Shown here piece after piece: positions 1 to 25,448 of a DNA stretch of 27,985 bases. This DNA is from a virus. Lineage: Duplodnaviria > Heunggongvirae > Uroviricota > Caudoviricetes. The translations under genes were made by a program, and so were the position numbers. Below the pieces are notes generated by a model. That model ran no database searches and was not told the DNA's origin. It saw only the letters and a list, made by a program, of their open reading frames with translations. The stretch is taken from the IMG/VR virus record IMGVR_UViG_2609459774_000007, positions 1 through 27,985 of that record. The stretch is one strand, 5' to 3'. Numbering within the stretch: the stretch's first letter is position 1; each line of letters begins with the position of its first letter.

Positions 1-483
1 ATGACGAAGAAAAAAGCACATAAACCTGGTTCAGCGACCATCGCGCTTAACAAGCGCGCCCGTCACGAATACTTTATCGAAGAAGAGTTCGAAGCGGGAC
101 TTGCCCTGCAAGGCTGGGAGGTTAAATCCCTGCGCGCAGGAAAAGCCAATATCAGCGACAGCTACGTCCTTCTGCGTGACGGAGAGGCATTTCTGTTTGG
201 CGCTAACATCACGCCAATGGCCGTGGCCTCCACGCATGTGGTGTGCGATCCTACCCGTACCCGCAAGTTACTTCTCAACCAACGCGAACTGGACTCATTG
301 TACGGTCGCGTCAATCGAGAAGGCTATACCGTAGTGGCGCTCTCCCTGTACTGGAAAAATGCCTGGTGCAAAGTGAAAATCGGCGTCGCCAAAGGTAAAA
401 AACAGCACGATAAACGTTCAGATATCAAAGAACGCGAATGGCAGGTGGATAAAGCACGTATCATGAAAAACGCCCACCGTTAA
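1..483 (+). CDS. smpB: SsrA-binding protein SmpB (trans-translation factor)
   Basis: 160-aa ORF matching enterobacterial SmpB over its full length as I recall it; lies immediately upstream of the tmRNA gene, the conserved smpB-ssrA arrangement. Confidence 0.95.
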
Positions 484-697: not shown

Positions 698-1060
698 GGG
701 GCTGATTCTGGATTCGACGGGATTTGCGAAACCCAAGGTGCATGCCGAGGGGCGGTTGGCCTCGTAAAAAGCCGCAAAAAATAGTCGCAAACGACGAAAA
801 CTACGCTTTAGCAGCTTAATAACCTGCTTAGAGCCCTCTCTCCCTAGCCTCCGCTCTTAGGACGGGGATCAAGAGAGGTCAAACCCAAAAGAGATCGCGT
901 GGAAGCCCTGCCTGGGGTTGAAGCGTTAAAACTTAATCAGGCTAGTTTGTTAGTGGCGTGTCCGTCCGCAGCTGGCAAGCGAATGTAAAGACTGACTAAG
1001 CATGTAGTACCGAGGATGTAGGAATTTCGGACGCGGGTTCAACTCCCGCCAGCTCCACCA
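698..1060 (+). ncRNA. ssrA: tmRNA (transfer-messenger RNA, SsrA)
   Basis: 363-nt sequence starting GGGGCUGAUUCUGGAUUCGACGGG and ending ...GGUUCAACUCCCGCCAGCUCCACCA; the tRNA-like acceptor/T-arm 3' end and overall length match E. coli tmRNA; directly downstream of smpB. Confidence 0.95.
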
Positions 1061-1064
1061 AATA
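1016..1064. repeat. attachment-site direct repeat, copy 1 (3' end of ssrA; attL of the P2-like element)
   Basis: 49 bp (ATGTAGGAATTTCGGACGCGGGTTCAACTCCCGCCAGCTCCACCAAATA) repeated exactly at 12713-12761; this copy is part of the intact tmRNA gene. Confidence 0.85.
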
Positions 1065-1068
1065 AATC

Positions 1069-1103
1069 AAGGGGTTACGTGAAAGCGTAGCCCCTTTTTC
1101 TTT
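1069..1103 (+). terminator. Rho-independent terminator immediately after ssrA (supplied by the inserted element)
   Basis: 11-bp stem AAGGGGTTACG/CGTAGCCCCTT (one G-U pair) with a 6-nt loop, followed by a TTTTTCTTT run, starting 9 nt after the tmRNA CCA end. Confidence 0.6.
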
Positions 1104-1183
1104 GGTAGTGGCGGCAAAATGGCGACAGACTATTGCGTCCATCTTGCCTATCGCCATCTTGAAATCATGCAAAGAGGTTTCAC

Positions 1184-1979: not shown

Positions 1980-3080
1980 TTATTCCATTTCAAGATCATC
2001 AATCCTCACTTCAAGCTCCAGACTGGTCGTAAAACCGTTATCCGGGCTGACGGTATGCGTCAGAGTCGTAATGGTCCATTCCGCATCATCTATCGGCTGT
2101 TTAAAACCACTGACTTTCACTGGCATTTCCGTGTAGAGATCTGCCCGACCTTCCGCCAGTTGTAGCGAGAATGACGCAACGCCGCGTTGCAGGCGTTCCC
2201 ACTGCATTTTCGCTGCCCGTTCAGCGTTACTCCGATTAGCATAGGTGCGATTAAGTACCAGCACGTTTTCATCCGTACCCACCAGGTAATCGCCCTGCTT
2301 CGCTTCCGGCTCTTTCTTCTGCTTCTTAGTCCTGCGCTTACGCTTCACCGTAGTGCTTTCTTTCTTCGCGGGTTCGCGGGTATGCAACCAGCTGGCAATT
2401 ACGCCCGTGTAGGCTCCGCGATCTGCCAGGGTAAAGCGGTGGCTGTCGCCGTCCTTGCGTGTGATAGTGATCACTGGCAGAGGTTTACCGCTGGCGCTTT
2501 TGCCCTGTCCCTGCCGGATGAATAACAGATTGCCATTTTTCACCGACGCAATAGCACCGTACTGGCGCGCCAGCCGCATCAAAAAACTGCCGTCACTCTC
2601 ATTGGTCTGGTCTATATGATCCACGGGCTTATCCGACAGATCTTTACCCAATGCCATCTTCAGTTTGTGCCGCGCAGCTATTTCCTTCACCACTTCCCCA
2701 ACGGTGGTCTTGTGCCACGACTTTTCACGGCGGGTATTCAGCGTTTCCCGAAAATCAGCACTTCGCGCCCGGATAGTCAGTCGGTCCGGTGCGCCAGTGT
2801 GTTCAATCTCGTCCACCGTGAATGCCCCTTTCGGGAAAAGCGGCTGCCCCTTCCAGCCCAGCGCCAGCGTAATGACCGCACCACGGCGCGGCAGCACTAT
2901 TTTTCCATCGGCGTCGTCCAGCTCCAGATCAAGCTGGTCCGCTTCAAAGCCCCGGTTATCCGTCAGCGTCAGCCTCATCAGGCGGTTATCCAGCACAGTG
3001 GTGATATCCCTGCCCTCAATACTGATGCTGAATGCGGGAGTTTTGTTGCCTTTGTTAAGCAGTTCAGAGCTGAAATTCAC
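1980..3080 (-). CDS. D: P2 gpD-like tail protein (late control gene D family)
   Basis: 366-aa ORF placed immediately upstream of ogr on the same strand, the conserved D-ogr arrangement at the end of the P2/186 tail operon; the length and position fit gpD. Confidence 0.8.
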   Translation of the reverse strand: MNFSSELLNKGNKTPAFSISIEGRDITTVLDNRLMRLTLTDNRGFEADQLDLELDDADGKIVLPRRGAVITLALGWKGQPLFPKGAFTVDEIEHTGAPDRLTIRARSADFRETLNTRREKSWHKTTVGEVVKEIAARHKLKMALGKDLSDKPVDHIDQTNESDGSFLMRLARQYGAIASVKNGNLLFIRQGQGKSASGKPLPVITITRKDGDSHRFTLADRGAYTGVIASWLHTREPAKKESTTVKRKRRTKKQKKEPEAKQGDYLVGTDENVLVLNRTYANRSNAERAAKMQWERLQRGVASFSLQLAEGRADLYTEMPVKVSGFKQPIDDAEWTITTLTHTVSPDNGFTTSLELEVRIDDLEME

Positions 3081-3418
3081 GACATCAGCCCTCCCACCGT
3101 TTTACTGATATCGCTTAAGGCAGATGTTGCCGTTTCCTGCAGATTATTCAGTTGCGCACTGAGATCACCGAACATATCGGACAGGGATTCATCCACCCGT
3201 TTGAGCGACAGGGTGAACTCAATCCGGCGCGGCATACCGTCGCGGAAAAACTCCGTTTTAGTCTGATTCAGTCCCTCAATCACATACATGCCGTAAATCG
3301 TGCCGCTGCCTTCAATCAGAGGCCATGCTTTCCCCTGTTCTGCCATCTGCTCCAGTGCCAGCAACGACAGCCTGCCGCCTGTTATCTCCGGCATAAGAAC
3401 ACCGGAAAGCGTCAGCAT
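3077..3418 (-). pseudogene. U: P2 gpU-like tail protein, N-terminally truncated fragment
   Basis: 113-aa ORF (TLSGVLMPEITGGRLSLLALEQMAEQGKAW...) matches the C-terminal two-thirds of gpU as I recall it; overlaps the D start by 4 nt as in intact tail operons; the N-terminal part is missing. Confidence 0.65.
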
Positions 3419-3459
3419 GTCGTTTTCCGGTCCCAGAAACTGCGTGGACGGACGTCGGT

Positions 3460-4185
3460 TTACCCGACTGTTTGCCGCATGTCGCCAGCTGCGTTGATAC
3501 TGCAGTTGTCTTCCTGCCAGTAGATGGACAGGTTATCCAGACGGGTGATCAGCAGCGCATTCGGCGGGAAGAACGGCGCACGCACGGCCTGCAGGCCACC
3601 CATGCGTTTCTGGCTGATGATCATATCGGCAGCCAGTTTTTCACTGTTTTCCTGCTCTTTGTTGACCAGCGGGAAATACTTGTCAGACAACAGTTCACGA
3701 CCGCAAATCACCACCAGACCGTCATCGTCCTGGTAAACCACGTCGATAAGCTCATTGACGGCATCCATCACCACAGCGTCCAGGTTGGCATATTCGCCAC
3801 CTTTCCCGACTTTCACCGCACCCGGAGTGGTTTCACCGCCCGTGGTGGTGCTGCCCATGACGTGATCCGGTGCATCCTCACGGATTTTCTGCAGCCAGCC
3901 TTTGTTCACATCCTGCAGCAGCGGGTTTTCGCTACGGTTGGAGGTTTTCGCACGCTTCACGCCGTTAAAGCCGATCATGATGCGGTCCAGTGCCTGACGT
4001 TTCACGATGGCGTCACGGATGCGCACCTGGAAATCCTGAAACTTCGCCCACAGATCCAGCTTCGCGTAGGTCAGCACCGTGTCAAAGTTGGTCTGCTCGC
4101 ATTTATATTCCACATCGACCATCAGGGTCGGATCGGTGAAGTGATCGCCCTTGAGCCTGCGCTGGCAAAATACACCCGACGCGGA
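3460..4185 (-). pseudogene. N: P2 gpN-like major capsid protein, internal fragment (both ends missing)
   Basis: The 220-aa ORF (3460-4122) aligns with the middle of P2 gpN (YKCEQTNFD...LDLWAKFQDFQVRIRDAIVKRQ...GFNGVKRAKTS...VISQKRMGGL...LSIYW). The frame extends upstream to a stop at 4186-4188 without N-terminal homology, and the C-terminus diverges after SIYW. Confidence 0.75.
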
Positions 4186-9033: not shown

Positions 9034-9276
9034 TTACTTACCAACAATGACGCGGAAGTTGGAATGACCGAGGGATTCACGGACCTGATCGGTTTTGTAC
9101 ATTAAATAACGCAGGCTTACGCGGCCTTTGTTTTTTTCTTTCTTGACCATGTATTTAGCAAGCTGACCATGGTGAATTTTTTGATACACGGAGCCGCGGG
9201 AGATACCTTCCCATTCCGCGAACTCAGCAGGCGTTGCCATCTCTTTTGGTACACGAATTGAAATATCAGTACTCAT
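9034..9276 (-). CDS. Apl/Cox-family small HTH protein (putative excisionase / lytic-promoter regulator)
   Basis: 80-aa ORF transcribed divergently from the repressor gene, first gene of the early lytic operon; HTH-like segment ATPAEFAEWEGISRGSVYQKIHHGQL. Confidence 0.55.
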   Translation of the reverse strand: MSTDISIRVPKEMATPAEFAEWEGISRGSVYQKIHHGQLAKYMVKKEKNKGRVSLRYLMYKTDQVRESLGHSNFRVIVGK

Positions 9277-9392
9277 AGTGCAGTATCTCTTAGTTTGGTT
9301 TCGTTTTATCTTGTTTTATGTGGTTTGGTTTTGCTTTTCAAACCATAAATGGATATTAGGATCACTTTTTATATACGTCAAGAGGTTTGATT
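9277..9392. promoter_or_regulatory. divergent lysis-lysogeny switch region (apl/cI intergenic; candidate operators and promoters)
   Basis: 116-bp AT-rich intergenic region between divergent apl and cI, with repeated GTTTGGTTT / TGGTTTGGTTTTG motifs and an inverted AAACCA copy. Confidence 0.5.
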
Positions 9393-10025
9393 ATGAGTTT
9401 AATAAAGGCGGGAAATGATAGTGGTGGGCGCGATGCAATTAACAGGCTTATTAAGGCTTACAACTTCAGCTCACGACAGCAGCTCTGCGAACATCTGGAA
9501 GTATCAAAAAGCACTATGGCTAACAGATACTTAAGGGATAGCTTTCCTGCCGAATGGGTAATTCAATGTGCCCTTGAAACAGGAGCTTCCCTTCTATGGC
9601 TGGCTACTGGTCAAGGAGATATGTATGCGTGTGAGAACGAAGAAACAAATCTCAAAAATGAACCTCCTGTCACTGTAAGACCACTTTCTAAGATCGTTGC
9701 TCCTAGCATCAAACGTGTTGAACTGAAGAACGGCGAACTGCAGCCAAGTGATGAAATTCTTCTTGATAGCAGCCTGCTCGATGGTGACTCATCCAACGCT
9801 TTATTTGTTAAAACAGCTAATAATAGCTTTGTAGTGGATACGTCCGTTAAACAAGTCAGTAATGGCTTCTGGTTAGTCGATATGGACGGAGTTAAAAGCA
9901 TCGTTAAAATTGCGCGCATACCCGGAAACAAAATAGTAGTTAACCAAGATGACACTTCATTTGAATGTTCTGTAGATGATGTGGAAGTCGTAGGACGTGC
10001 AGTCAAAGTAATCAAGAACCTCTAA
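9393..10025 (+). CDS. cI: 186-type CI-like immunity repressor
   Basis: About 210 aa with an N-terminal HTH (VSKSTMANRYLRD...) and a C-terminal oligomerisation-like region; immediately upstream of int as in 186-type prophages. The track ORF starts at a TTG (9387); ATG at 9393 has AGAGG 7 nt upstream. Confidence 0.75.
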   Translation: MSLIKAGNDSGGRDAINRLIKAYNFSSRQQLCEHLEVSKSTMANRYLRDSFPAEWVIQCALETGASLLWLATGQGDMYACENEETNLKNEPPVTVRPLSKIVAPSIKRVELKNGELQPSDEILLDSSLLDGDSSNALFVKTANNSFVVDTSVKQVSNGFWLVDMDGVKSIVKIARIPGNKIVVNQDDTSFECSVDDVEVVGRAVKVIKNL

Positions 10026-10028
10026 CTT

Positions 10029-11048
10029 ATGACCATCAGAAAACAGCCGAACGGAAAATGGTTGTGTGAGTGCTATCCCAATGGACGCAATGGTAAGCGC
10101 GTGCGTAAGCAATTTGCTACCAAAGGCGAAGCCATTGCGTTTGAAAGCTTCACAATGGAAGAAGTGAACAAAAAACCGTGGTTAGGAGAAAAGGATGATC
10201 GGCGACACCTATCAGAATTAATTGAGCTTTGGTATTCCCTGTATGGTCAGACACTCGCAGACCCCAAGCGCCTCATGGCGAAACTTAGAATTATCTGTAA
10301 TGGTCTAGGCGACCCCATCGCCTCAGAACTGACAGCCGGTGACTTTACGAAATACCGCGAAGCACGGTTAAAAGGTGAAGTACGAAATGAAGATGGGACG
10401 CTTATGTCGCCCGTTAAGCCCCGCACGGTAAACCTCGAACAGCGCAATCTATCATCGGTGTTCGGTACATTAAAAAAACTAGGACACTGGTCAGCACCAA
10501 ACCCGCTGGCAGGACTTCCAACCTTCAAAATTGCCGAAGGTGAGCTGGCTTTTCTTTCCATGGACGAAATCAAGCGCCTGTTGGCTGCATGTGCTGAATC
10601 TCAAAGCCCCAGCTTATTAATGATTGCCAAAATATGTTTGGCTACCGGCGCACGTTGGAGCGAAGCCGAAAACCTGCATGGCCACCAAATATCGAAATAC
10701 CGAATTACTTATATAAAGACAAAAGGTAAGAAAAACAGAACAGTACCGATATCACAGGAACTATATGACGAACTCCCCAAGCACAGAGGGAAGTTATTCA
10801 CGCCATGCAGAAAAGCCTTTGAGCGTGCAGTAAAGCGGGCCGGTATTGAACTTCCGGAGGGGCAATGCACCCATGTATTACGTCATACATTCGCCAGCCA
10901 TTTTATGATGAACGGCGGAAACATACTGGTACTACGCGATATTCTGGGCCATGTGGATATAAAAATGACGATGATTTATGCCCACTTTTCCCCTGACCAC
11001 CTAGAAGATGCGGTAACAAAAAACCCACTGTTTAATTTAAAATGGTAA
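10029..11048 (+). CDS. int: P2-type tyrosine integrase
   Basis: 339-aa ORF with clear similarity to P2 Int (PxGRNGKRxRxxF...; catalytic-region HxLRHTFASHFMMNGG...MxYAHF); transcribed toward the attR repeat. Confidence 0.9.
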   Translation: MTIRKQPNGKWLCECYPNGRNGKRVRKQFATKGEAIAFESFTMEEVNKKPWLGEKDDRRHLSELIELWYSLYGQTLADPKRLMAKLRIICNGLGDPIASELTAGDFTKYREARLKGEVRNEDGTLMSPVKPRTVNLEQRNLSSVFGTLKKLGHWSAPNPLAGLPTFKIAEGELAFLSMDEIKRLLAACAESQSPSLLMIAKICLATGARWSEAENLHGHQISKYRITYIKTKGKKNRTVPISQELYDELPKHRGKLFTPCRKAFERAVKRAGIELPEGQCTHVLRHTFASHFMMNGGNILVLRDILGHVDIKMTMIYAHFSPDHLEDAVTKNPLFNLKW

Positions 11049-12583
11049 ATTTAACGATGAAAAGATTGAAATCAGTTTCCGATGCAGTTATCCAACTCAG
11101 ATTAAATGCGGTAAAAGCAAGTATTCAAAGCGTCAATCCAAACGAGTTTATAACACATTGCCTTGATTATAACCTCCAGAAATTTAACAATCAGCTTGAA
11201 ATGTTACAACACCTACCATGGGTTGTGAATTTATGCATTAAATGGTCCGCCAGTGCGCTGGGTAAAAAACGGAAATTTAAACATATTGACAGACCTGGTG
11301 CTGTCAGGTTGCTACAACGAGCATATGAGGAACTAAGTATAATTCCAACTGGTCTGGAAAATATAGACAAAGGGATTAACTTTTTCCTTAGAAATACGTT
11401 ATATCAACAAGGTATTTATCAAAGATTAGATGCTTTAAATACAATTAGCAGACAAGTTTTCTTGTTTTCTTCCTTAGATGACAACAATAGAATCAAGCGT
11501 AGATTCAAAGAACTTACTGATGTTGATATAAACGATTTTCTAAAACTATCATTTGTGTTAGTATCACTCGTTACCTTACAAGCACCAGTAAAGAAAATAA
11601 CAATAGATTCTTTCGCAGCTCTTTACTCCGTAATACCTAAAGATACAATCGAGAAATTTCTGAATACTATATCTATCCCTTACGAAGAACTAGCTCGGTT
11701 TTGCTGTACAAAAGATAATGAGACACCTTTAGTAGAATATTATGCTCCATCGCCTTTCTTAGAAAAACCTTTCATCAAATTCGAAGGAAATTATCACCAA
11801 ATACATACGCAGCTAACTTCGACCAGTATACAAACCTTTATATATGATTTGCTTCGCAGAGATGATGCAGAATCGTTCATGGACAAATTTGGGCGAGTTT
11901 TCGAAAATGCAGTCAACCAGCTATTAGATGAAAGTGGAATTGCTTATATTGCTGAAGGAAATTTAAAAGAATATCTACCTCAAGAGAATAAAGTTGTAGA
12001 TTTTCTACTACCTCATGATGAAGCTAACATTTTCATCGATGCTAAAGGTGTTGAGATAAACCAAAAGGGAATGGTTACACTACGACCAGGGGATATTTCT
12101 GCCAATATAAAAAGCTCCGTATTAAAAACTATAGAACAAGCACACTCAGTAAATAGAGAGCTAATTAAAAAAGGTAACCAAAATTTTTCTTTTAAAAAAG
12201 AGTCCTACATTTTATGTCTTACTTATAAAAATTTATTCCTTGGAAATGGTACATTTCTAAATAAATCCTATGCTAACATCGAAATGAAAAAAATCCGAGA
12301 TAGGCATTCAGAAGAATATCAAATACCTGATGAGAACATTTTCTGCATATCATTTGAGGAATTCGAGTATCTGCTATCTTCTTGCAAGGAATACTCAAAA
12401 CCTGTACATGAGGTACTGCGAGAAGCTGTAGTTAGAAACCAAACACCATCAAGTGCAGTTTTCCTTTTTGCACATCATATCCGTGACTCATTCCCCAAAA
12501 TACGTTCATCTGAGATCGTCAGGCTCGCAGGCTTGAGCGAGATCAACCATATCGTTGAACGATTAGAGCAAGCTGGCTCTTGA
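11042..12583 (+). CDS. uncharacterised 513-aa cargo protein with a putative C-terminal PD-(D/E)xK nuclease core
   Basis: Long AT-rich ORF between int and attR, overlapping the int stop (alternative start ATG 11057). The C-terminal half has E...VVDFLLP...IFIDAKG, fitting the E/D/(D/E)xK arrangement of PD-(D/E)xK nucleases; the N-terminal ~270 aa have no recognised motifs. Confidence 0.6.
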   Translation: MVNLTMKRLKSVSDAVIQLRLNAVKASIQSVNPNEFITHCLDYNLQKFNNQLEMLQHLPWVVNLCIKWSASALGKKRKFKHIDRPGAVRLLQRAYEELSIIPTGLENIDKGINFFLRNTLYQQGIYQRLDALNTISRQVFLFSSLDDNNRIKRRFKELTDVDINDFLKLSFVLVSLVTLQAPVKKITIDSFAALYSVIPKDTIEKFLNTISIPYEELARFCCTKDNETPLVEYYAPSPFLEKPFIKFEGNYHQIHTQLTSTSIQTFIYDLLRRDDAESFMDKFGRVFENAVNQLLDESGIAYIAEGNLKEYLPQENKVVDFLLPHDEANIFIDAKGVEINQKGMVTLRPGDISANIKSSVLKTIEQAHSVNRELIKKGNQNFSFKKESYILCLTYKNLFLGNGTFLNKSYANIEMKKIRDRHSEEYQIPDENIFCISFEEFEYLLSSCKEYSKPVHEVLREAVVRNQTPSSAVFLFAHHIRDSFPKIRSSEIVRLAGLSEINHIVERLEQAGS

Positions 12584-12712
12584 TTGCACAATTGCAAATT
12601 GGCGACAAATTGGCGGCAGAGCATTAAAAATGCGTAAAATAAACAAACACCAAATAATACTAATATGCTGTTTTAAAACATAAATATATGTTTTTATCAT
12701 AATAATAATGGT

Positions 12713-12761
12713 ATGTAGGAATTTCGGACGCGGGTTCAACTCCCGCCAGCTCCACCAAATA
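12713..12761. repeat. attachment-site direct repeat, copy 2 (partial ssrA 3' end; attR of the P2-like element and attL-type junction of the P4-like island)
   Basis: Exact 49-bp repeat of 1016-1064; the sequence upstream of it is unrelated to ssrA, so this is only a partial ssrA copy. Confidence 0.85.
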
Positions 12762-12791
12762 TTGATGTACTGAAGTTCAGTAAAGTCTACT

Positions 12792-12826
12792 AAGCCCGCA
12801 CAGCACAAGCTCTGCGGGCTTTTTTA
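12792..12826 (+). terminator. Rho-independent terminator downstream of the second att copy
   Basis: GC-rich stem GCCCGCA/TGCGGGC with a ~12-nt loop, followed by TTTTTT. Confidence 0.55.
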
Positions 12827-12923
12827 CGTCTATTGTAGTCTAGTGAGAATTGCTGAGAACTACGAGTTATGGCACCCTGAATGGGACCCACGAAGATGGG
12901 TCCTAAAATCGAGGGTCCCAAAC

Positions 12924-14153
12924 ATGGCCAAAATCGCTAAGAAGCTCACTGACACTGAAATCAAAAGCACCAAACCTGCCGAAAAAGAGGTTAACCTTTT
13001 TGACGGCGATGGTTTGCTGTTGCGAATCGCTCCCCTGGCGAAGGGAGGGAAGAAAAATTGGTATTTCAGATATGCAGTGCCTGTGACCAAAAAGCGAACT
13101 AAGGTGAGCTTAGGAACCTATCCTCACCTTACACTTGCGAAGGCACGAGCTTTACGTGATGAATACTTGTCGTTGCTTACAAATGGTATAGACCCCCAAG
13201 TTCATAACAACCAAAAAGCCAATGCACTGAAAGATGCCACGGAACATACATTTCAAGCAGTAGCCAAGAAGTGGCTTGATGAGAAAGTCAAAACGTCAGG
13301 CATCTCCCAAGATCATGCTAACGACATCTGGCGAAGCCTAGAGAGAAATATCTTTTCCACATTGGGTGATACCCCAATTAAGGAGATTCGCCCTAAAATG
13401 CTTAAACAGCATTTAGAACCCATAGAAAAACGAGGTGTCCTTGAAACACTTCGCCGCATCATATCCCGCCTGAATGAAATTTTCCGCTATGCAGCAACAG
13501 AAGAACTCATAGAATTCAACCCGGCAGACAACCTGGGGCAACGGTTCAGCAAGCCAAAAAAACAGAATATGCCAGCATTACCCCCTTCCGAACTCCCTCG
13601 CTTCTTGGTTGCTCTAAACAATGCTTCTATCCGTTTGGAAACAAGGCTACTGATTGAGTGGCAACTTCTCACATGGGTTCGCCCAGGTGAAGCTGTTCGC
13701 ACAAGATGGTCAGATATTGATATTGAAACTGGCATGTGGAACATCCCGGCGGAGTTTATGAAAATGAAGAAGCCTCACAAAGTTCCACTGAGCAAAGAAG
13801 CTTTGCGAGTTTTGGATTTAATGAAAGTCATCAGCGGGCATAGAGAGTGGGTGTTCCCCAGTATCAAAGCTCCACTCAATCACATGCATGAACAAACAGC
13901 TAATGCGGCCATAATCCGTATGGGTTTCGGAGGTGAGCTTGTAGCTCACGGTATGCGATCCATTGCTAGAACGGCTGCTGAGGAGTCTGGCAAGTTTAGG
14001 ACTGATGTCTTAGAAGCCGCCCTTGCCCACTCGAAGAAAGATGAAATAATTGCAGCCTACAATCGTGCAGAGTATCTCACTGAACGGGTGGTTCTCATGC
14101 AATGGTGGAGTGACTATGTTTCGTCTCAAAAATGCAAAGTTATTGCCGCATAA
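12924..14153 (+). CDS. P4/IntA-family tyrosine integrase
   Basis: Strong similarity to E. coli CP4-57 IntA as I recall it (LTDTEIK..KP, DIWRSLER, LETLRR, PLS.EAL.(V/I)L, HG.RSIA.TA, LAH, AYNR.(E/D)YL..R...MQWW.D). The track ORF starts at 12843; the homology-supported start is ATG 12924 (MAKIAKKLTDTEIK). Confidence 0.9.
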   Translation: MAKIAKKLTDTEIKSTKPAEKEVNLFDGDGLLLRIAPLAKGGKKNWYFRYAVPVTKKRTKVSLGTYPHLTLAKARALRDEYLSLLTNGIDPQVHNNQKANALKDATEHTFQAVAKKWLDEKVKTSGISQDHANDIWRSLERNIFSTLGDTPIKEIRPKMLKQHLEPIEKRGVLETLRRIISRLNEIFRYAATEELIEFNPADNLGQRFSKPKKQNMPALPPSELPRFLVALNNASIRLETRLLIEWQLLTWVRPGEAVRTRWSDIDIETGMWNIPAEFMKMKKPHKVPLSKEALRVLDLMKVISGHREWVFPSIKAPLNHMHEQTANAAIIRMGFGGELVAHGMRSIARTAAEESGKFRTDVLEAALAHSKKDEIIAAYNRAEYLTERVVLMQWWSDYVSSQKCKVIAA

Positions 14154-14215
14154 CTCTCCCATGATGGATTAACTATCTTGATTTAGTTAAAGAATTAATA
14201 ATCACACCATTAACC

Positions 14216-14265
14216 TATGTGGACTAAGCATAGCCATTTACAAATGGGGACATTGAGTCCACATA
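14216..14265. repeat. 50-bp nested inverted repeat (candidate recombinase or ParB binding/crossover site)
   Basis: Outer 10-bp arms TATGTGGACT / AGTCCACATA flank a 30-bp spacer that itself contains CCATTT-AC-AAATGG (6-bp arms around a non-palindromic AC centre); between intA and the serine recombinase gene. Confidence 0.5.
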
Positions 14266-14435
14266 ACGAAAGCTGTCGGTCATATCAGCTAAATAATTCA
14301 CATCTCTTCTCGATTATCATACACCTCGAAGATCTACCAAATTCGCTCTAATCAATGATAAAACAGTTGAATTCGGTTGAAATTTGATCAATTTTATCCA
14401 CTACATTGTATTGAATCATCCATGAGGTTTCGTGC

Positions 14436-15992
14436 ATGGCTAGCGAAAATGACAAAAATCATAGAGTTAGGGTCGCGCAGTACTTGAGGATGTCTACCGA
14501 CCATCAGCAATATTCTTTACATAATCAGTCCGAATATATCAAAGATTATGCTGAAAAGAACAATATGGAAATCGCTTATACCTACGATGATGCAGGTAAG
14601 AGCGGAGTCAGTATCGTAGGCAGGCATTCTTTGCAGCAGTTACTTAGCGATGTAGAACAAAAGAAAATAGATATACAGGCTGTATTATTTTATGATGTGA
14701 GCCGTTTTGGTCGTTTTCAAAATAGTGATGAAGCGGCATATTATTCCTTTCTATTTGAGAGAAATGGTGTAGATCTTATATATTGTTCCGAACCTATACC
14801 CACTAAAGATTTCCCTTTAGAGTCCTCTGTTATACTGAATATAAAAAGATCTAGTGCTGCATATCACAGCAGGAATCTATCTGAAAAGGTATTTATAGGG
14901 CAAGTAAATTTAATAAAGCTTGGTTATCATCAAGGCGGTATGGCTGGTTATGGGCTGAGACGTCTTTTAGTAGACGAAAATGGCATAGCTAAAGAAATAT
15001 TGAGTTTCCGCAAAAGAAAGAGTATTCAAACAGATAGGGTAATATTAATTCCGGGACCAAAAAATGAAATAAAAATTGTAAATAGAATATATGATCTCTT
15101 TATAGATAATAACGTCCCAGAATTCATTATTGCTGAGAGATTAAATGAACAGAACATACCTGCAGAAAATGGAACATTATGGACTCGTGCAAAAATACAT
15201 CAAATTTTGACAAATGAAAAATATATTGGAAACAACATATATAACAAAACCTCATCTAAATTAAAAAGTAGGCTTGTAAAAAACCCCAAACATGAATGGG
15301 TTAGATGTGACAAGGCATATAAACCTATTATTTCAAAGAAAAAATACAATAAAGCTCAAGAAATAATTCAGCTCCGATCCATTCATTTGACTAATGAAGA
15401 TCTATTAGAAAAACTAAAACAAAAATTAGAATCTAATGGAAAACTATCAGGCTTTATCATTGATGAAGATGATACAGGCCCTTCATCTTCTGTTTATAGA
15501 ACCCGATTTGGTGGTCTTTTAAGAGCATATACTTTGATTGGTTATAAGCCAGAACATGATTACAGCTATCTCAAAATAAATGAAGCACTAAGATCATTTT
15601 ACTCAGAGATAATTGAGGATTTTAAGGGTGAAATTTTAAAAAGTAACTGTCATATAGACGAGTATAAATATGCCCCAATGCTTTACATCAATGATGAGTT
15701 TTTAATTTCCGTCCTTGTTACTAAATGCATACATATGAAATCAGGTAAACTTAGATGGAAAGTCCGGTTTGATAACTCACAGAAAGCAGACATAACAATT
15801 GTTATACGAATGAATTCACAAAATATTTCACCTCTTGATTTTTATATCATACCAAAGATTGAAAACGAATATAATAAAATGTGCATGACGGAAACAAACA
15901 ACATTCGATTAGATCTCTATAGATTTGATAATCTTGATAAACTTCTACAAATTATTACTCGCATGAAAGTGAGGGAACTATATGCTGCCTGA
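14436..15992 (+). CDS. large serine recombinase (resolvase/invertase catalytic domain plus recombinase domain)
   Basis: 518-aa AT-rich ORF; the N-terminus has the serine-recombinase catalytic pattern (YLRMSTDHQQYSLHNQ ... YDDAGKSG ... DVSRFGR); RBS GAGG upstream. Confidence 0.85.
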   Translation: MASENDKNHRVRVAQYLRMSTDHQQYSLHNQSEYIKDYAEKNNMEIAYTYDDAGKSGVSIVGRHSLQQLLSDVEQKKIDIQAVLFYDVSRFGRFQNSDEAAYYSFLFERNGVDLIYCSEPIPTKDFPLESSVILNIKRSSAAYHSRNLSEKVFIGQVNLIKLGYHQGGMAGYGLRRLLVDENGIAKEILSFRKRKSIQTDRVILIPGPKNEIKIVNRIYDLFIDNNVPEFIIAERLNEQNIPAENGTLWTRAKIHQILTNEKYIGNNIYNKTSSKLKSRLVKNPKHEWVRCDKAYKPIISKKKYNKAQEIIQLRSIHLTNEDLLEKLKQKLESNGKLSGFIIDEDDTGPSSSVYRTRFGGLLRAYTLIGYKPEHDYSYLKINEALRSFYSEIIEDFKGEILKSNCHIDEYKYAPMLYINDEFLISVLVTKCIHMKSGKLRWKVRFDNSQKADITIVIRMNSQNISPLDFYIIPKIENEYNKMCMTETNNIRLDLYRFDNLDKLLQIITRMKVRELYAA

Positions 15993-16878
15993 AAAAAATG
16001 AATTCCCAATAATTCAAATTGAGATTGCAAAAATAAAATTTCTTAACCCACGAACAAGAAATAAGGTAGTGCATGAAGAAATAAAGGAAAGCATAAAAAA
16101 AAGAGGATTAAGCAAGCCAATAAGCGTAAGAGCTATTGATGAAGGCGATTTCAAATATGCTTTAATTTGTGGTCAAGGGAGAATAGAGGCTCTCGTTGCA
16201 TTAGGTGAAACTATTATTCCAGCAATTATAAGAGATGTATCAGAAGAAGATGCTTACGTTATGAGTTTAGTTGAAAACATTGCAAGGAGAAGGCCACGTT
16301 CTAATGAGTTATTACAGGTGATTAAAGACATGAAAATCAGAGGACTTTCAGACTCCGAAATAAGTGAGATTACTGGATATTCATCGAACTGGGTGAGCAG
16401 TATTAATATGCTACTTGATAAGGGAGAGCATAAACTTCTCTCAGCAGTCGAACGGGGTAATTTGCCTCTGTATCTCGCAGTGCAATTTGCAAGATGTGAA
16501 ACTGAGGAAGCACAAGATATTCTTACCGAAGCATATGATAAAAAATTAATAAAAAGTCGGGACATTATAAAGATAAAACACATTCTAAATCAAAGAACAG
16601 TTGGGAATAAAGGTGCAAAAGCAGCCGGATTTTATTATCACAAACCATCAAAAAGGATGACTGCAGAGGAGTTGATTGAGCTTTATGAAAATAGTATCGC
16701 TGAACATAAATCTGTTTATAACAACTCAAAATTCATAAAAACCAACCTACTAATAGTAAATGAGATTTTTAACATCATAATGATGAATAAAAGCTTTCAA
16801 CATATACTTGAACAAGAGAATCTTTCAGAACTACCATCTCAGATATTAACCCCAGTAAACAAAGAGGTATTAAAATGA
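15982..16878 (+). CDS. ParB/Srx-fold protein with HTH (ParB-like, paralogue 1)
   Basis: 298 aa; N-terminal ParB-like region (IQIEIAKIKFLNPR ... ISVRAIDEGDFKYALICGQGRIEAL ... IPAIIRDVSEEDAYVMSLVENIARR) followed by an HTH-like segment; start overlaps the recombinase stop. Confidence 0.7.
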   Translation: MLPEKNEFPIIQIEIAKIKFLNPRTRNKVVHEEIKESIKKRGLSKPISVRAIDEGDFKYALICGQGRIEALVALGETIIPAIIRDVSEEDAYVMSLVENIARRRPRSNELLQVIKDMKIRGLSDSEISEITGYSSNWVSSINMLLDKGEHKLLSAVERGNLPLYLAVQFARCETEEAQDILTEAYDKKLIKSRDIIKIKHILNQRTVGNKGAKAAGFYYHKPSKRMTAEELIELYENSIAEHKSVYNNSKFIKTNLLIVNEIFNIIMMNKSFQHILEQENLSELPSQILTPVNKEVLK

Positions 16879-17771
16879 TTCAGATACGTTTTGGCGATAA
16901 TTTTATTTACCTGGAAACTAATAAGTTAATTCCATCTAAGGAATTATTAGAAAACGTAAAGCGAAGCCATAAATATCATCAAATAGTTACCTCTATCGAA
17001 AGCTTAGGTATTATTGAACCAATAATAGTATTCTATGACAAAGATAAAGATGTCACTAAGATACTTGATGGCCATTTAAGGGTTGAGGCTTTAAAAGACT
17101 TAGGTATAGAAAAAGCTCCATGTATACTTTCGAGCATAGATGATGCTTTCACTCCTAACAAACAAGTGAATCATATAAATGTAGTTGAAGAACATAGAAT
17201 GATAATTAAGTCTCTGGCAAAAGTATCAATTGAAAAACTTAGTGCTGCTTTGGGCATATCTGTTGATGCCATAAAAGATAAAGCGAATGTGATGAACGGC
17301 ATAGATCCAAGTGTAATTGCGAAACTTTCTGATAAACCTATACCTAAGGCTACATTTGACGTTTTGAGGAAAATGAAGCCAATTCGCCAAATTGAAGCAG
17401 TCGGTACAATGATTAATTTTGATAATTATAGTAAAAAATTTGCAATGAGCATCTTGGATGCAACACCGGCATCGATGATAGTAAATAAAGGGAAAAACAC
17501 TCCCTATAAAAAGGACATAAAAAAAACCATACTTCGTCTGGAACAAGAAATGGCAACAACTTCGGAAGAAACGAAAAAGCTTCAAACCGAGTATGGTTCA
17601 GATATGTTGAAATTCGTTATAATCCAGTCATATATTAATAAATTACTTGGCAATTCTAAAGTTCTTCATTGGTTCTTAGAAAACGAGGTTGATTATCTTA
17701 ATGAGTTAAAAAGAATTTCTAGAATAAATTCTTTGGATGATAAGACTCTTACTGAAAACAGCAAGTCATAG
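16875..17771 (+). CDS. ParB/Srx-fold protein with HTH (ParB-like, paralogue 2)
   Basis: 298 aa; ParB-like N-terminal region with a DGHxR-type motif (ILDGHLRVEAL) and an HTH-like segment (LSAALGISVDAIKD); start overlaps the stop of the preceding ParB-like gene by 4 nt. Confidence 0.65.
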   Translation: MIQIRFGDNFIYLETNKLIPSKELLENVKRSHKYHQIVTSIESLGIIEPIIVFYDKDKDVTKILDGHLRVEALKDLGIEKAPCILSSIDDAFTPNKQVNHINVVEEHRMIIKSLAKVSIEKLSAALGISVDAIKDKANVMNGIDPSVIAKLSDKPIPKATFDVLRKMKPIRQIEAVGTMINFDNYSKKFAMSILDATPASMIVNKGKNTPYKKDIKKTILRLEQEMATTSEETKKLQTEYGSDMLKFVIIQSYINKLLGNSKVLHWFLENEVDYLNELKRISRINSLDDKTLTENSKS

Positions 17772-18879
17772 TCATGGTTTTATATAGCCTAAATAAACCA
17801 AGAAGTATACTTACACAACGACCTTCACGCCGAAGAAGCTGTCAGATACGCCAGCAACCAAAGCATTACGTTTAAGTGTCAGTCATTGATACGAAGGGAT
17901 AACTGCGTATCAGCAGCCGGACATTGAGTCGAATAAAGGCTGGTAGAGAGGGACAGTTCTGTGTCATCGGGAGATTCGTCAGAAACATCAGCGGCAGAAC
18001 AGATGAACCAGCAATTGGTAGTGCACAGAAAACTCTCCAGTATTTAATTATTCAACTTAACACTAAAAAAAATCACATAGTTAATATCATAATTTTTCTT
18101 TGGTCTACGTATGCGAGAGATATTGTGGCTTTAACCGGGTATTAGGAGTCGTTTCAGATAAAAGATGTTCTTCGATTCGACTGGACTTGGTAATAGCAAT
18201 AAGTAATCGTTAATATTGAAGGACGAAAGGCTACTTCAAAACAAAGTAACCTTTCCAATATTCCCATCTATGGGACAAGTGGTACATTAACTGCACATAG
18301 TGCAGGATACATATGACATAAAACTTTTTATTTATGGCATACATTATAAATAACTTGTATTTTATGAATGTCAATAGGTTCTTGTTTAATACTTTTAAAA
18401 TTATTAATTGATTGTTTTTATTATAGCTTCGCTTGTACAAGCGAAGATCCTATTGTTCTTGAATGAATAATGCCAATTATAAGAGAAGCAAGGGCTAACT
18501 CTGCGAAGCCGCTGCGCTTGCTTCTTCGAGTTCCCCTTGCTTTTCTGCCCTTCGGTTATAAAAGAAGCCAAACTGCTACCAACCTTGAATCTCTATATTT
18601 TTGAATAGACAAACATTACCCGCTCCCTTAATCACCACTATCAAAAATAAAAAATCATCTTACAAATAACCCCATACACATCATTTTAGATTGCGACCTT
18701 ATTAAATTAAAAATTCAACCTTAGATGGAATTTAATGTACAAGGAATGTCCTACTGTAACGGAGAATTTTAAACATTAAAAATTACAACTATGGTTTGTC
18801 ATAGCCTGTACATCTATTCACCTCATGCATATGCACTAAGAAAGCTTTTTTGAATACTGGAGTTGTCCCTGCTAAAACG

Positions 18880-19210
18880 GACACGGCTAATTAACTGCTA
18901 ATATGGCATCACGATATTCGCGTGGCGATTTCATGTTCAACCCCTTGTGTGGATGCAGATTATTATAATCCTCTATCTATTCTGCCATTGTTTCCATCAT
19001 TTAGACTGCATCCAGCAGATCATCTACGTACACATAATCCCGCTTGAACGTCTTTACAAACGATTCTGCCATGCCGTTACTTCCCGGACTGCGTACTGGT
19101 GTAGTACACACGATGAACCACAGTGAACTAGCGAATGTGCGCGTGGCATCGGCTGTGCAGCAATTATGCCAATGACACTGGCTCCATTGACGGCAATGAC
19201 CTGACATCTA
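18880..19210 (-). pseudogene. IS3-family (IS2-like) transposase 3' fragment, frameshifted remnant
   Basis: Two frames on the minus strand give ...RSPGSNGMAESFVKTFKRDY... and ...HPHKGLNMKSPREYRDA..., matching the C-terminal region of IS2 InsD-type transposases ([20 protein letters not shown] ... [14 protein letters not shown]); no intact ORF. Confidence 0.6.
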
Positions 19211-19367
19211 CAATCCCGCTACAAAGCATTTACTCCATGAGTCATTGCACTTGCTGAGCTACACGAACACACTAAAACCAGATAATAATTAATCGCTGTA
19301 TAAGCTCGTAACAAGCGGAACTTTAAGGCAAAATAGGGCCATCTTCCCCCTTCATAAGGTTACGCTA

Positions 19368-20915
19368 ATGGCCAGAAAACCTAAAGAAATCAAAACAGAC
19401 CCGTTAGAGGTCATCCTGTGGAAAGCGGCAGACAAACTGCGTAAAAACATTGATGCAGCCGAGTACAAGCACGTCGTACTAGGCCTCATTTTCCTTAAGT
19501 ACATTTCTGATTCTTTTGAATCTCATTATGAGTTGCTGAAAGCCGGTAAAGGCGAGTTCGCAGGTGCTGATCCGGAAGACAAAGACGAGTACACCGCTTA
19601 CAACGTTTTCTTTGTCCCTGAGCTTGCACGTTGGAACTATCTGATTTCTAAGGCCAAGCTTCCTGAAATCGGTAAGATGGTTGATGATGCGATGGAGCTT
19701 ATCGAAGCGGGCAATCCACAGTTAAAAGGTGTGTTGCCGAAAGTCTATGCCCGACAAAACCTCGACGCCACTGTTCTGGGTGAGCTGATAGATCTGATTG
19801 GCAACATTGCACTAGGAGATGCCAAAGCACGCTCTGCTGACGTTTTAGGTCACGTATTCGAATACTTCCTAGGTGAATTTGCACTGGCAGAAGGCAAACA
19901 AGGCGGCCAGTTCTATACGCCAAAATCTATTGTAAGCCTGCTGGTTAACATGCTGGAACCCTATAAAGGCCGTGTCTTTGATCCCTGCTGTGGTTCTGGT
20001 GGTATGTTCGTTCAGTCAGAAAAATTTGTAGAAGCACATCAGGGAAATATTGACGATATTTCGATCTATGGGCAGGAGTCCAACCAGACCACTTGGCGTC
20101 TGGCAAAAATGAACCTGGCAATTCGTGGGATTAATTCTGAACACGTTCGCTGGAATAATGAAGGTTCATTTCTTAACGATGCTCACAAAGATTTGAAATC
20201 TGATTTTATCATAGCTAACCCACCGTTTAACGTTTCCGACTGGTCTGGTGAGCAGCTTCGTGGTGATGCCCGCTGGCAATATGGCATTCCACCTGCTGGC
20301 AACGCTAACTTTGCATGGATGCAACATTTTTTGTATCACTTGTCTCCTAAAGGGCAAGCGGGTGTTGTTCTGGCAAAAGGGGCATTAACTTCTAAAAGCT
20401 CTGGTGAAGGTGATATTCGTGCTGCACTGGTAAAAGATGCCAATGTGATTGACTGTATCGTCAACTTACCGGCAAAGCTGTTCCTGAATACTCAGATCCC
20501 TGCTGCATTATGGTTTATGCGCCGTGACCGTCATAACAGCAACCAGTATCGTGATCGTAGTAAAGAAATTCTGTTTATTGATGCCCGTAATCTCGGTCAT
20601 TTAATTAATCGTCGTACCAAAGTACTTTCTGACGACGATATAAAAACCATCGCTGATACCTATCATAACTGGCGTAACAAAGGTGGCGACTACGAAGACG
20701 TCGCTGGTTTCTGTGCGTCAGTAGACATTGCTGAAGTTGCTAAACTCGATTATGTGCTGACACCTGGCCGTTATGTTGGTCTTGCTGATGAAGAAGACGA
20801 TTTCGACTTTAAAGAACGCTTTACGGCTCTTAAAGCTGAGTTTGAAGCGCAACTGGAAGAAGAGGCGCGTCTGAACAGAGCCATCGTTGATAATCTGGCG
20901 AAGGTGGTTTTATGA
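19368..20915 (+). CDS. hsdM: type I restriction-modification system, DNA methyltransferase subunit
   Basis: 515-aa ORF with an HsdM-type N-terminus and the N6-adenine methyltransferase catalytic motif NPPF (IIANPPFN); start overlaps nothing upstream and its stop overlaps the hsdS start by 4 nt. Confidence 0.92.
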
Positions 20916-22105
20916 GTAGGTGGAGAAATTTTTGTATAACTGAATTAGCAGATTTTTGCAACGCACAAAGAATTCCTTTGAGTGCTATGGAACGAGCCCA
21001 TAAGAAAGGAAATTTTCCATATTATGGAGCGTCAGGAATTGTCGATTATATCGACAATTATATTTTTGATGGCAGCTACATCCTTATTTCTGAAGATGGA
21101 GAAAACTTAAAGTCCAGAAAAACACCTATAGCATTTGAAGCTACTGGAAAATTTTGGGTTAATAATCACGCTCATGTCCTTAAAGCTAAAAAGCCCCATT
21201 TAACGGCATTGATAATCCAATATTTTTCACAACTTGATCTATCTCCTTATTTAACAGGTGCTGCTCAACCAAAATTAAATAAAGCATCGCTAAATTTGAT
21301 TCCTCTTTACTTACCAATTGATGAATCTGAACAAAAAGCCATCGCCTCTATTTTGTCCTCTCTTAAAGACAAAATAGACCTGCTTCATCGCCAGAATAAA
21401 ACTCTGGAATCCATGGCAGAAACCCTATTTAGACAGTGGTTTATTGAAGAGACGCATGCGGATTGGGAAATAACGACTCTTGATTGTCATATTACAGTAG
21501 CTAAGGGATTAAGCTACAAGGGAGCCGGCCTTACCACGTCAGATAACGGCATTCCACTTTTTAGTTTGAACTCAGTACTTGAGGGCGGTGGTTATAAGAG
21601 TGCAGGTATAAAATACTACAATGGTGATTTTAAAGAAAGGCATATTATAAAGCCTGGGGATATCATTGTAGCCAATACAGAACAGGGCCATGAATATCGA
21701 CTCATAGGGTATCCTGCTATAATTCCAAAAACAGAAAGCGAATTATCCATATATACGCATCATTTATTTAAAATCAGCATCAATGACGATAGTTACTTAA
21801 CCAATGCTTTTCTGTACTATTTACTTTGCTCCAAAGATATGCATGAGCAAGTTGTTGCTGCAACTAACGGTTCAACTGTAAATCAGCTGTCGGCTGACGG
21901 ATTACAACGCCCAGAATTCAAACTCCCCCCGGAGTGTATGGTGAAAGAATTCACTACACAGATTGATTTCTTCTGGAAAAAAATAAGTATTAACAACTCA
22001 CAAATTAAAAACATAGAATCTCTGCGCGACACTCTCCTTCCCAAACTGATGAGCGGCGAAGTACGGGTTCAGTATGCGGAAGAAGCAATCGCATCAGTAG
22101 CATAA
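20912..22105 (+). CDS. hsdS: type I restriction-modification system, specificity subunit
   Basis: 397-aa ORF with a two-target-recognition-domain architecture and the typical HsdS N-terminal pattern ([14 protein letters not shown]); translationally coupled to hsdM. Confidence 0.85.
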
Positions 22106-22163
22106 AATAATTATGCGGGTGTACAGCCCGCTCTCTGGTTAAGCGGCAATAAGGACAGTACGC

Positions 22164-25100
22164 ATGGCAAAGATGACCGAATCCGATATTGAAGTAATGG
22201 CAATTGAGCACCTGCAAGGGCTGGGCTATGAGTATGTTTACGGCCCGGACATTGAACCCAGTGGAATCAATCCGTTACGTAGCTATCAGCAGGTTATCCT
22301 TGAAGATAAAGTGCGTACAGCATTGCAACGAATTAACCCGCACCTTAGTGAGCAGAAGTGTGAAGAAGCTCTAAAACAGGTGATGCAGATCAGCTCACCT
22401 GACCTAATGGCAAACAATCTAACCTTTCATCGCCTTTTGACCGAAGGAATCAATATCGAAGTCAGCAAGGATGGTAATACACAAGGAGAACTGGCCAGCC
22501 TGATCGACTTTAACGATCCCACTAATAATGCATTTCTGGTCATTAATCAGCTCACCATCAAAGAAGGCAACCATACCCGCCGACCTGATCTTATTTTATT
22601 CATCAATGGCCTGCCATTAGTCGTTATCGAACTTAAAAATGCCGCTGACGAAAATGCAACGGTAACAGGTGCCTATAATCAGATTAAAACCTATCAGAAC
22701 CAAATCCCCGGTCTGTTTAACTACAATGCTTTTAATGTGATATCTGACGGGCTGGAAGCCAAAGCGGGGACGGTTTCTGCCGATTTCAGTCGTTATATGA
22801 CGTGGAAAACTGCTAACGGTAAAACGCAAGCCACCAGTACCCAACCACAGCTTGAAGTTTTATTACAGGGGTTGCTTAATCCTGTAACGCTGCTGGATAT
22901 AATCCGCCACTTTATCGTGTTTGAGGCCAGCAAACATGAAGACAGCAAAGGGATTATCAGTATCCGTACTGTTAAAAAAATGGCGGCTTATCACCAGTAC
23001 TACGCGGTCAATGCAGCAGTTCTTTCCACTATTCGTGCCTCAGCGGTGAATGCGGACTCCCCCTCTGCCGAAGTGGCACTGCGCCAGCAGGGACGTAACA
23101 GTAAAGATCTTGTTAATGCGCAAAAAACCGGAGATCGCAAAGCGGGCGTAGTCTGGCATACTCAGGGTTCCGGTAAATCGCTTTCGATGGTGTTTTATAC
23201 CGGGAAAATTGTGCTGGCGCTGGATAATCCGACAGTTGTTGTGATTACTGACCGTAACGACTTAGATGATCAGCTATTCGGTACGTTCTCTTCCGCGACC
23301 CAGCTACTTCGTCAGACACCAAAACAGGCCAACAACCGGGAAGAACTCAAAGAATATTTGCGTGTCGCCTCTGGCGGTGTGGTGTTTACTACTATTCAAA
23401 AATTCCAGCCTGATGATGGCAGCAATATCTATGAGTTGTTGTCAGACAGAACCAATATTGTCGTTATCGCTGATGAAGCACACCGTTCCCAGTACGGTTT
23501 CAGCGCCAAAGAAGTTGACGTGAAAGACAGCGAAGGCAACGTAACAGGTAAACGCACCGTTTACGGCTTTGCCAAATATATGCGTGATGCCTTACCTAAT
23601 GCGACCTATCTCGGCTTTACCGGAACCCCCATAGAAAAAACGGACGTCAACACGCCTGCTGTTTTTGGTAACTATGTTGATATCTACGATATCTCGCAGG
23701 CCGTTGAAGATGGTGCAACAGTTCGTATCTTTTATGAAAGCCGTCTTGCCAAAATTGCCATCAGTGATGAAGGTCGTCAGCTTATTGAAGACTTTGATGA
23801 TGAGTTTAACGAGGACGAACTGACGCTCACGCAAAAAGAACGTTCTAAATGGGCCAGAATCGAAGGTTTGATTGGCAGTTCAAAACGTATTAAAGCGATT
23901 GCGGCGGATATGGTTCTGCACTTTGAGCAGCGCTTAAAATCCAATGCCGATCATGGTAAGGGCATGATTGTTACCATGTCCCGCCGTATTGCTGCTGAAC
24001 TATATAAAGAAATCATAGCCTTAAAACCTGAATGGCACAGCGATGATTTAAATGACGGTATAATAAAAGTCGTCATGACCTCTTCTGCTGCTGACGGGCC
24101 AGAAATTGCCAAACACCACACCACAAAAAAAGAACGTCAGGTTCTGGCTAACCGTATGAAGGATGACGACGACAAGCTGAAACTGGTGATAGTGCGTGAT
24201 ATGTGGTTAACCGGCTTCGACGCTCCCAGCATGCATACGCTGTATATCGACAAACCAATGAAAGGCCACAACCTTATGCAGGCAATTGCCCGTGTGAACC
24301 GTGTGTATAAAGATAAGATAGGCGGTCTGGTTGTTGACTATCTGGGCATTGCCTCTGATTTAAAAGAAGCCCTCTCCTTTTACTCTGATGCAGGTGGACG
24401 TGGAGATCCTGCTGAGGTTCAGGAAGAAGCCGTAACGCTCATGCAGGAAAAGCTGGAAATCCTGGAAGGCATGATGCATGGATACGATTACAAAGCTTAC
24501 TTTGCCGCAACTACCTCACAACGCCTGACAATTATTCTTGAATCAGAAAACCATATTTTAGGGCTGGATAACGGTAAAGGTAAAATGCGTTTCCTCGCTG
24601 CGGTTGCAGCCTTATCGCAGGCATTTGCATTGGCGACACCGCACGATAAAGCAATGGAAGCGGCACCCGAAGTAGCATTCTTCCAGGCAGTAAAAGCCAG
24701 ACTGAATAAATTTACTGAAAACTCAGACGGATCAGAAGAAGAACACAATGACAGTCTCGAAGTTCGGGTAAAACAGACTATCGATCAGGCTCTGGTTACC
24801 GATAAAGTTGTTGATATTTTTGACGCTGCTGGGATACAAAAACCTGATATTTCCGTTCTTTCTGAAGAATTCCTTCAGGAAATGAAGGATTACCAACACA
24901 GAAATATTGCTTTGGAAACGCTTAAAAAACTGCTTTCTGACGAGATCAAGGTTCGCTCGAATCAAAGTATCACCCAAGGCAAAAAACTGATTGATATGCT
25001 GACCTCTGCAATCAATGGCTACCAGAACAAGGTACTGACCGCAGCGGAGGTAATTGATGAGCTAATCAAGCTTGCCAAGACTATCCAGGAATCTGACAGC

Positions 25101-25403: not shown

Positions 25404-25448
25404 TTCCCTAAATTTTTAGCATATAAACTATTTGGTAATGGTCCCAAC

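Follow-up and report, generated by a model that had tools for sequence, protein, structure and literature searches.

Direct repeats beside the attR core of an ssrA-integrated P2-family prophage remnant: probable integrase arm-type sites of the 186/Fels-2 type

The prophage remnant and its two attachment arms

The window analysed here, which is the whole 27,985-nt stretch of DNA, opens with smpB and the tmRNA gene ssrA and carries, inserted in this E. coli ssrA gene, an element of ~11.7 kb that is an internally deleted P2-family prophage remnant with both of its ends kept. The gene order of the element runs from a BRCT/ligase-like ORF through ogr-like, gpD, truncated gpU-like, truncated major head, gpA, methyltransferase, fil, cII, apl-like, cI and int genes to an ORF of 513 aa, and DNA comparison groups the element with Fels-2, RE2010, Cartapus, SEN8 and related Klebsiella and Yersinia phages. 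The truncated gpU-like tail gene directly adjoins the truncated major head gene (3077-4122), a junction that marks the internal deletion. Most of the late genes were lost in this event, with int, cI, apl and both att arms left intact. A second island (12762-27985) lies in tandem at the same ssrA core, and its recombinase, ParB/RepB-like, restriction-modification and ankyrin-repeat genes are listed with the other features of the window in Table 1.

The repeats considered here lie downstream of the 513-aa ORF and are followed by an AT-rich stretch that extends up to the attR core, a 49-bp block identical to the 3′ end that the phage supplied to the intact ssrA gene at attL. An equivalent pair of repeats begins 45 nt past the attL core, on the same strand as the int-side pair. 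The immediate contexts of the four sites are AAT-TGGCGACA and AAT-TGGCGGCA on the int side and TAG-TGGCGGCA and AAA-TGGCGACA on the far side. A strong hairpin, overlapped by an exact IHF consensus, is located between the attL core and the far-side pair and terminates ssrA in the lysogen; by analogy with phage 186, it would also terminate the cI-int operon in the free phage.

Table 1. Features of the window; arm-type, IHF and Apl sites are predictions
Feature	Position	Strand	Remark
smpB	1-483		Window start
ssrA (tmRNA)	698-1060	+	3′ end within 1016-1064
attL core, phage-supplied 3′ end of intact ssrA	1016-1064	+	Identity block shared with attR core
Exact IHF consensus AATCAAGGGGTTA	1065-1077	+	0 mismatches; directly after core
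Terminator hairpin between core and P′ arm sites	1069-1096	+	Strong; overlapped by IHF consensus
Predicted far-side (P′) arm site 1, TGGCGGCA	1109-1116	+	Motif match, fixed distance from core
Predicted far-side (P′) arm site 2, TGGCGACA	1120-1127	+	Conservation among relatives stops directly after
Possible third far-side arm site, inverted, TGGCGATA	1149-1156	-	Cartapus has minus-strand TGGCGACA at the same place
apl/cox-like excisionase gene	9034-9276	-	Position as apl of Fels-2, Cartapus and MLG42; no Pfam match
Four AYMAAAC repeats between apl and cI	9293-9329	-	Exact 10-bp spacing; probable Apl operators
cI	9387-10025		Between apl-like gene and int
Tyrosine integrase, P2 family, 186/Fels-2 type	10029-11048	+	Pfam Int_N and Phage_integrase
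Cargo, 513-aa GapS1-family antiphage protein	11042-12583	+	NCBIfam NF047931 match of 401.6 bits (cutoff 320)
Predicted int-side (P) arm site 1, TGGCGACA	12600-12607	+	Outermost attP/attR element; Fels-2 homology starts here
Hypervariable 3-nt spacer between int-side sites	12608-12610		From comparison of relatives
Predicted int-side (P) arm site 2, TGGCGGCA	12611-12618	+	11 bp from site 1
A-tract heptamers TTAAAAA, GTAAAAT, ACAAAC, candidate Apl operators	12624-12650	+	~10-bp phasing; tentative
Two IHF-like elements, TAAN5TGTTT	12661-12693 (12661-12696 as TAAN5TGTTTT)	-	20 bp apart; each 2 mismatches to WATCAANNNNTTR; tentative
attR core, displaced ssrA 3′ end	12713-12761	+	49 bp identical to 1016-1064
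P4-type integrase, second island	12843-14153
Large serine recombinase, second island	14436-15992
Two ParB/RepB-like proteins, second island	15982-17771
Type I restriction-modification system hsdM/S/R, second island	19368-25403
Ankyrin-repeat protein, second island	26633-27502

The repeat unit and its conservation among relatives

The initial annotation had described two tandem copies of CAAATTGGCG and two copies of ATTGCA, followed by a very AT-rich stretch leading into the att core. The CAAATTGGCG copies occupy 12595-12604 and 12606-12615, and ATTGCA is found at 12583-12588 and again at 12591-12596, which confirms the presence of a repeat, the positions given and the AT-rich stretch. The register of the repeat did not hold, because the unit that is conserved in relatives is TGGCGRCA, recurring with an 11-bp period and separated by a 3-nt spacer that is free to vary. 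From the comparison of relatives, CAAAT is variable spacer and flank and falls outside the conserved unit; ahead of the first copy, it is unrelated cargo-side sequence when compared across 46 non-redundant relatives. The ATTGCA copies (12583-12596, plus strand) are part of the 3′ end of the 513-aa gene and its flank, and their columns show zero conservation among relatives; in locus L030, the P-arm pair is identical to that of the window and the upstream flank is unrelated. Since a 6-mer recurring within 20 nt is, by our own estimate, expected more than 100 times per 28-kb window, this pair is noise and was rejected as a feature. A terminator or hairpin role for the interval 12584-12620 was also rejected, as no such structure was predicted there.

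The tandem repeat itself is non-random. When up to two mismatches were permitted, the composite 20-nt sequence TGGCGRCANNNTGGCGRCAG had only two matches in the window, at 12600-12619 and 1109-1128, both of which are exact and in the same orientation, one in each prophage arm and 11.5 kb apart. Shuffled sequence gave a mean of 0.05 matches, and two matches were found in none of 100 shuffles. The shorter unit TGGCGRCA taken alone occurs six times in the window, compared with 1.8 expected occurrences.

For the comparative analysis, the cores of relatives were anchored by the ssrA core sequence alone, the motif being no part of the selection, and 65 ssrA-like cores were taken from phage records and IMG/VR contigs. 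The int-side pair is located at -113/-102 from the core, to within 1 nt, in every one of the 63 integrase-side ssrA cores; the two remaining cores are attL sites with the body of the ssrA gene upstream. The far-side pair is found at +55/+66 from the 38-nt core query in all six cores that are followed by phage DNA. An information profile built from 46 representatives, with mutual identity below 93%, reveals near-invariant TGGCG and CA columns, with the 3-nt spacer and all columns upstream of the pair almost informationless. The spacer reads AAT, TTT, CTT, ACT, GAT, AAA, AAG, TAA, CAT, GTT, ATG, ATA, AAC and others in different relatives. A comparison with the attP arms of Fels-2-type phages had been proposed initially as one means of checking the repeats, and they proved to be present in Fels-2 and in every ssrA-integrating relative examined. 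In Fels-2, SEN8 and MLG42, which lack a cargo gene, the first TGGCG begins 5 nt past the int stop codon, and the pair is also found beside cargos unrelated to that of the window (a RES-domain protein and proteins of 506-516 aa). A five-way alignment shows that the window becomes alignable with Fels-2, SEN8 and MLG42 exactly from the first TGGCG, and that alignability with Fels-2 and SEN8 is lost just past the last far-side repeat. These homology bounds imply that the repeats delimit a conserved attP of ~225 bp.

The relatives are fairly close, with Int proteins at least 83% identical, and part of this conservation could be due to shared ancestry, although the contrast between the conserved motif and its variable spacer and flank argues against this. 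A relative with a different core was sought to see whether the motif follows Int, and none was found among the relatives examined; Kp4845-2 also proved to be an ssrA integrator. The only comparator with a different core is phage 186 itself. Loci L010 and L011, whose int genes are ~80% identical at the DNA level, fell outside the comparison, their records ending before the att site. IMG/VR loci without the first exact core marker were all ssrA cores with at least one substitution, with the exception of L063 (IMGVR_UViG_2713896946_000004). This locus has a normal int-side arm and diverges from ssrA within the first few bases of the core (GGTATGCAGGATTCATGGG...), ~118 nt past the pair, and its junction could be rearranged or aberrant.

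Probable identity of the repeats and weighing of alternatives

The integrase of the element is 91% identical to Fels-2 Int and 55% identical to 186 Int. It carries W11, E14 and Y16, as do the 186 and Fels-2 integrases, at the three N-terminal positions that have been proposed to separate two Int types by arm specificity (PMC3448106); P2 Int has Y, D and R at these positions. Direct repeats are present in all P2-like phages but one and are of two types, tgTGGaCa in the P2 type and tgccGCCActt in the 186 type (PMC3448106). The reverse complement of the latter, aagTGGCggca, is the motif present in the window, which is also close to YAYCGCCAYTY, the sequence given in the phage 186 GenBank record for predicted Int arm-type sites, three on one side and two on the other. 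The int side of 186 reads TGGCGATAAAG-TGGCGGTAGAAA-TGGCGAAT directly after orf69, and the far side reads TGGCGATAGAA-TGGCGGTGGA together with an inverted copy. A further search of the literature brought to light no new experimental footprints on arm sites of the 186 type.

Taken together, the match to a published consensus, the same-strand pairs flanking both copies of the core at fixed positions, the selective conservation of the motif and the 186-type residues of Int argue for the repeats being arm-type sites. On this comparative evidence, they are very probably the two int-side arm-type sites of a 186/Fels-2-type attP that now forms the attR of a defective prophage, in line with the reading as integrase arm-type sites that had first been put forward, with binding itself a prediction. 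Both the site type and its consensus are already published, and direct repeats have been reported for the Fels-2/SopE-phi group (PMC3448106).

Accessory-factor (IHF/Cox) sites had been named in the initial annotation as the other possible identity of the repeats. Operators of the directionality factor Apl/Cox are head-to-tail direct repeats one helical turn apart, a description that the 11-bp period of the pair would suit (PMC7498355), and the Apl operators of 186 likewise lie on the int side of the core. However, Apl/Cox sites need at least three adjacent phased repeats and are confined to one arm (PMC7498355), whereas here there are two on the int side and both arms are occupied, including the far side, where 186 is without Apl sites. 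Moreover, TGGCGRCA is absent from the apl-cI switch region between the early promoters (9277-9387), where Apl operators must occur too, and AYMAAAC is found there instead. We regard an Apl/Cox identity for these repeats as very unlikely. It seems similarly improbable that they bind CI, CII or a host protein and thereby control transcription that continues from the cI-int-cargo operon into attP. Transcription from pL would be expected to cross the repeats before it reaches the terminator beyond the core, and 186 CI does have remote flanking sites, but the CI and CII sites annotated in 186 lie elsewhere and have different sequences, TGGCGRCA is not found at pR or pL, and symmetric placement about the core at fixed distances is a trait of arm sites, unlike a transcriptional operator. 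That the repeats were brought in by the cargo cassette, for instance as its terminal repeat or as an element that regulates or terminates GapS1 expression, or arose by chance duplication, is the least credible of the alternatives: they begin close to the cargo stop codon and the CAAATTGGCG register reaches into cargo-side sequence, but no terminator or hairpin is predicted at the repeats, the pair is duplicated in the other arm 11.5 kb distant, and its occurrence in cargo-free Fels-2, SEN8 and MLG42 and next to unrelated cargos excludes a cargo-borne repeat.

By analogy with the layout of 186, the interval 12620-12712 of the AT-rich stretch would be expected to hold Apl and IHF sites. In the 186 record, five Apl operators immediately follow the int-side arm sites in the direction of the core, an IHF footprint lies at the position that corresponds to the IHF-like pair of the window, and another abuts the core on the far side. 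Within the window, conserved TAAAA/AA blocks phased at ~10 bp are found at 12625-12657 (offsets 25-29, 35-39, 46-47 and 56-57, counted from arm site 1), and relatives read ATAAAAC in this stretch, which is the heptamer of the 10-bp array between apl and cI. The A-tract heptamers on the int side are thus candidate operators for the excisionase Apl, with an uncertain register in that a spacing of ~10 bp results when the T of TAAAA is the anchor, but not when the 3′ C is. Among relatives, the tentative IHF-like elements also have conserved TAA and TGTTTT blocks. In the switch region, the AYMAAAC array probably represents the Apl operators, by analogy with 186, in which seven such operators lie between pR and pL (PMC7498355). 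This array is kept in Fels-2 and partly in MLG42, and is unlike the TGGCAA-like operators of 186.

If the site works as in lambda, P2 and 186, Int would bind the TGGCGRCA units through its small N-terminal domain; the int side has two of these units and the far side two or three, with 11-bp spacing within the pairs. The same protomers would use their central and C-terminal domains to bind and cut the 49-bp ssrA-identical core. IHF bound in the AT-rich stretch and beside the core would bend the DNA and enable arm-bound Int to reach the core. During excision, Apl would occupy the phased operators just inside the int-side arm pair. Occupancy of the repeats by Int, like the parts assigned to IHF and Apl, is inferred by this analogy. 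As the prophage is a deletion remnant, the arm sites may no longer be used in the source strain.

The attP of phage 186 (Eganvirus) provides a close parallel, since there too the core is flanked on either side by TGGCG-centred direct repeats spaced 11 bp apart, with two or three copies directly downstream of the int operon and with two direct copies and one inverted copy on the far side. The 186 record gives the same order of int, a small ORF, arm sites, Apl operators, IHF, core, IHF, terminator and arm sites, and annotates a 'predicted terminator of lysogenic operon' at the same position as the hairpin of the window. The small ORF of 186, orf69, lies between int and the arm sites, where the window has a 1.5-kb defence gene. 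The two systems differ in their cores, located in tRNA-Ile in 186 and at the 3′ end of ssrA in the window, in the repeat flank (RTR in 186, RCA in the window) and in the Apl operators, which are TGGCAA-like hexamers in 186, whereas the putative operators of the window are A-tract heptamers (AYMAAAC). The Fels-2/SopE-phi group (Felsduovirus) shares with the window the same ssrA core, TGGCGRCA pairs at identical distances, the far-side arm and the terminator. Unlike the element in the window, which is the product of an internal deletion, Fels-2 lacks any gene in the gap that separates int from the arm pair, and its third far-side copy, like that of SEN8, is direct, in contrast to the inverted copy of 186 and the possible inverted copy of the window. 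The P2 attP resembles that of the window in overall design: each side of the core carries two direct arm repeats, IHF acts between the core and one of the arms, the Cox boxes are located on the int side, and the int operon ends with arm sites. It differs in its arm motif, TGTGGACA, in int-side repeats that overlap the last codons of int, in a short core that is neither tRNA nor tmRNA, and in the discriminator residues of Int (PMC3448106).

The int-att slot and its cargo

The 513-aa cargo was recognised by NCBIfam as a member of the GapS1 family; searches of the same protein with Pfam and PADLOC gave no recognition. RefSeq labels the gene gapS1, and the int-gapS1-attR block occurs in only 2 of 5,426 complete E. 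coli genomes. The first description of GAPS1 came from work on the Gamma-Mobile-Trio (10.1101/2023.03.28.534373). The start of the gene overlaps the stop codon of int, its own stop codon (12581-12583) lies 16 nt before the first TGGCGRCA, and gapS1 is probably expressed with cI and int from the lysogenic promoter.

The tandem repeats had initially been taken to place the cargo gene within the functional attachment region. The comparison with relatives does not support this, because homology with Fels-2 starts at the first TGGCG, the ~225-bp attP is contiguous, and no conserved arm-type copy was found upstream of the cargo in the window or in relatives. Together with the position of the first repeat 5 nt past the int stop in Fels-2-type phages, this homology break indicates that the cargo is situated between int and the outermost arm site. 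As judged from sequence, the GapS1 gene is part of the mobile element but not of the functional att site, since attP has its outer boundary at the first arm site.

The slot between int and att is either empty (5 nt) in relatives or filled by 0.64-2.2 kb of diverse genes, and its breakpoints are always the int stop codon and the first arm site (loci L002, L003, L006, L009 and L012-L091). Its contents include a RES-domain protein in Cartapus and RE2010, HNH endonucleases, proteins of 506-516 aa in Klebsiella phages and large hypothetical proteins. A minor defence hotspot between int and att has already been reported for the P2 family (PMC13586616), and the locus described here has the properties of such a hotspot, with variable and often defensive genes between the int stop and att, inside the element. 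At the opposite end, a 160-aa BRCT/NAD-ligase-like ORF (phrog_2561, 1184-1666) lies just past the far-side arm sites and is present in Cartapus and MLG42 and absent from Fels-2 and SEN8. This pattern of presence and absence implies that the other edge of attP borders a variable slot too.

A further idea, which we consider unlikely, is that the first arm site and the last int codons are fixed borders of a cassette slot whose cargo is read from the lysogenic promoter through attP, with interference between expression and the occupancy of attP by Int and Apl. The overlap between the int stop and the cargo start, the lack of a terminator ahead of the arm sites and the homology break at TGGCG fit such coupling without demonstrating it. 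If it were true, read-through could modulate excision of the prophage or of the remnant.

The importance of these observations lies mainly in correct annotation, the feature being a textbook part of a known attP type and the hotspot having been published as well. On the arm-site interpretation, the outer attP boundary of this prophage family would be fixed at the first TGGCGRCA, and TGGCGRCANNNTGGCGRCAG at -113 from the ssrA core would provide a 20-nt signature that delimits Fels-2-like prophages and their int-att cargo slot. The GapS1 gene would then travel inside the mobile element but outside its recombination site.
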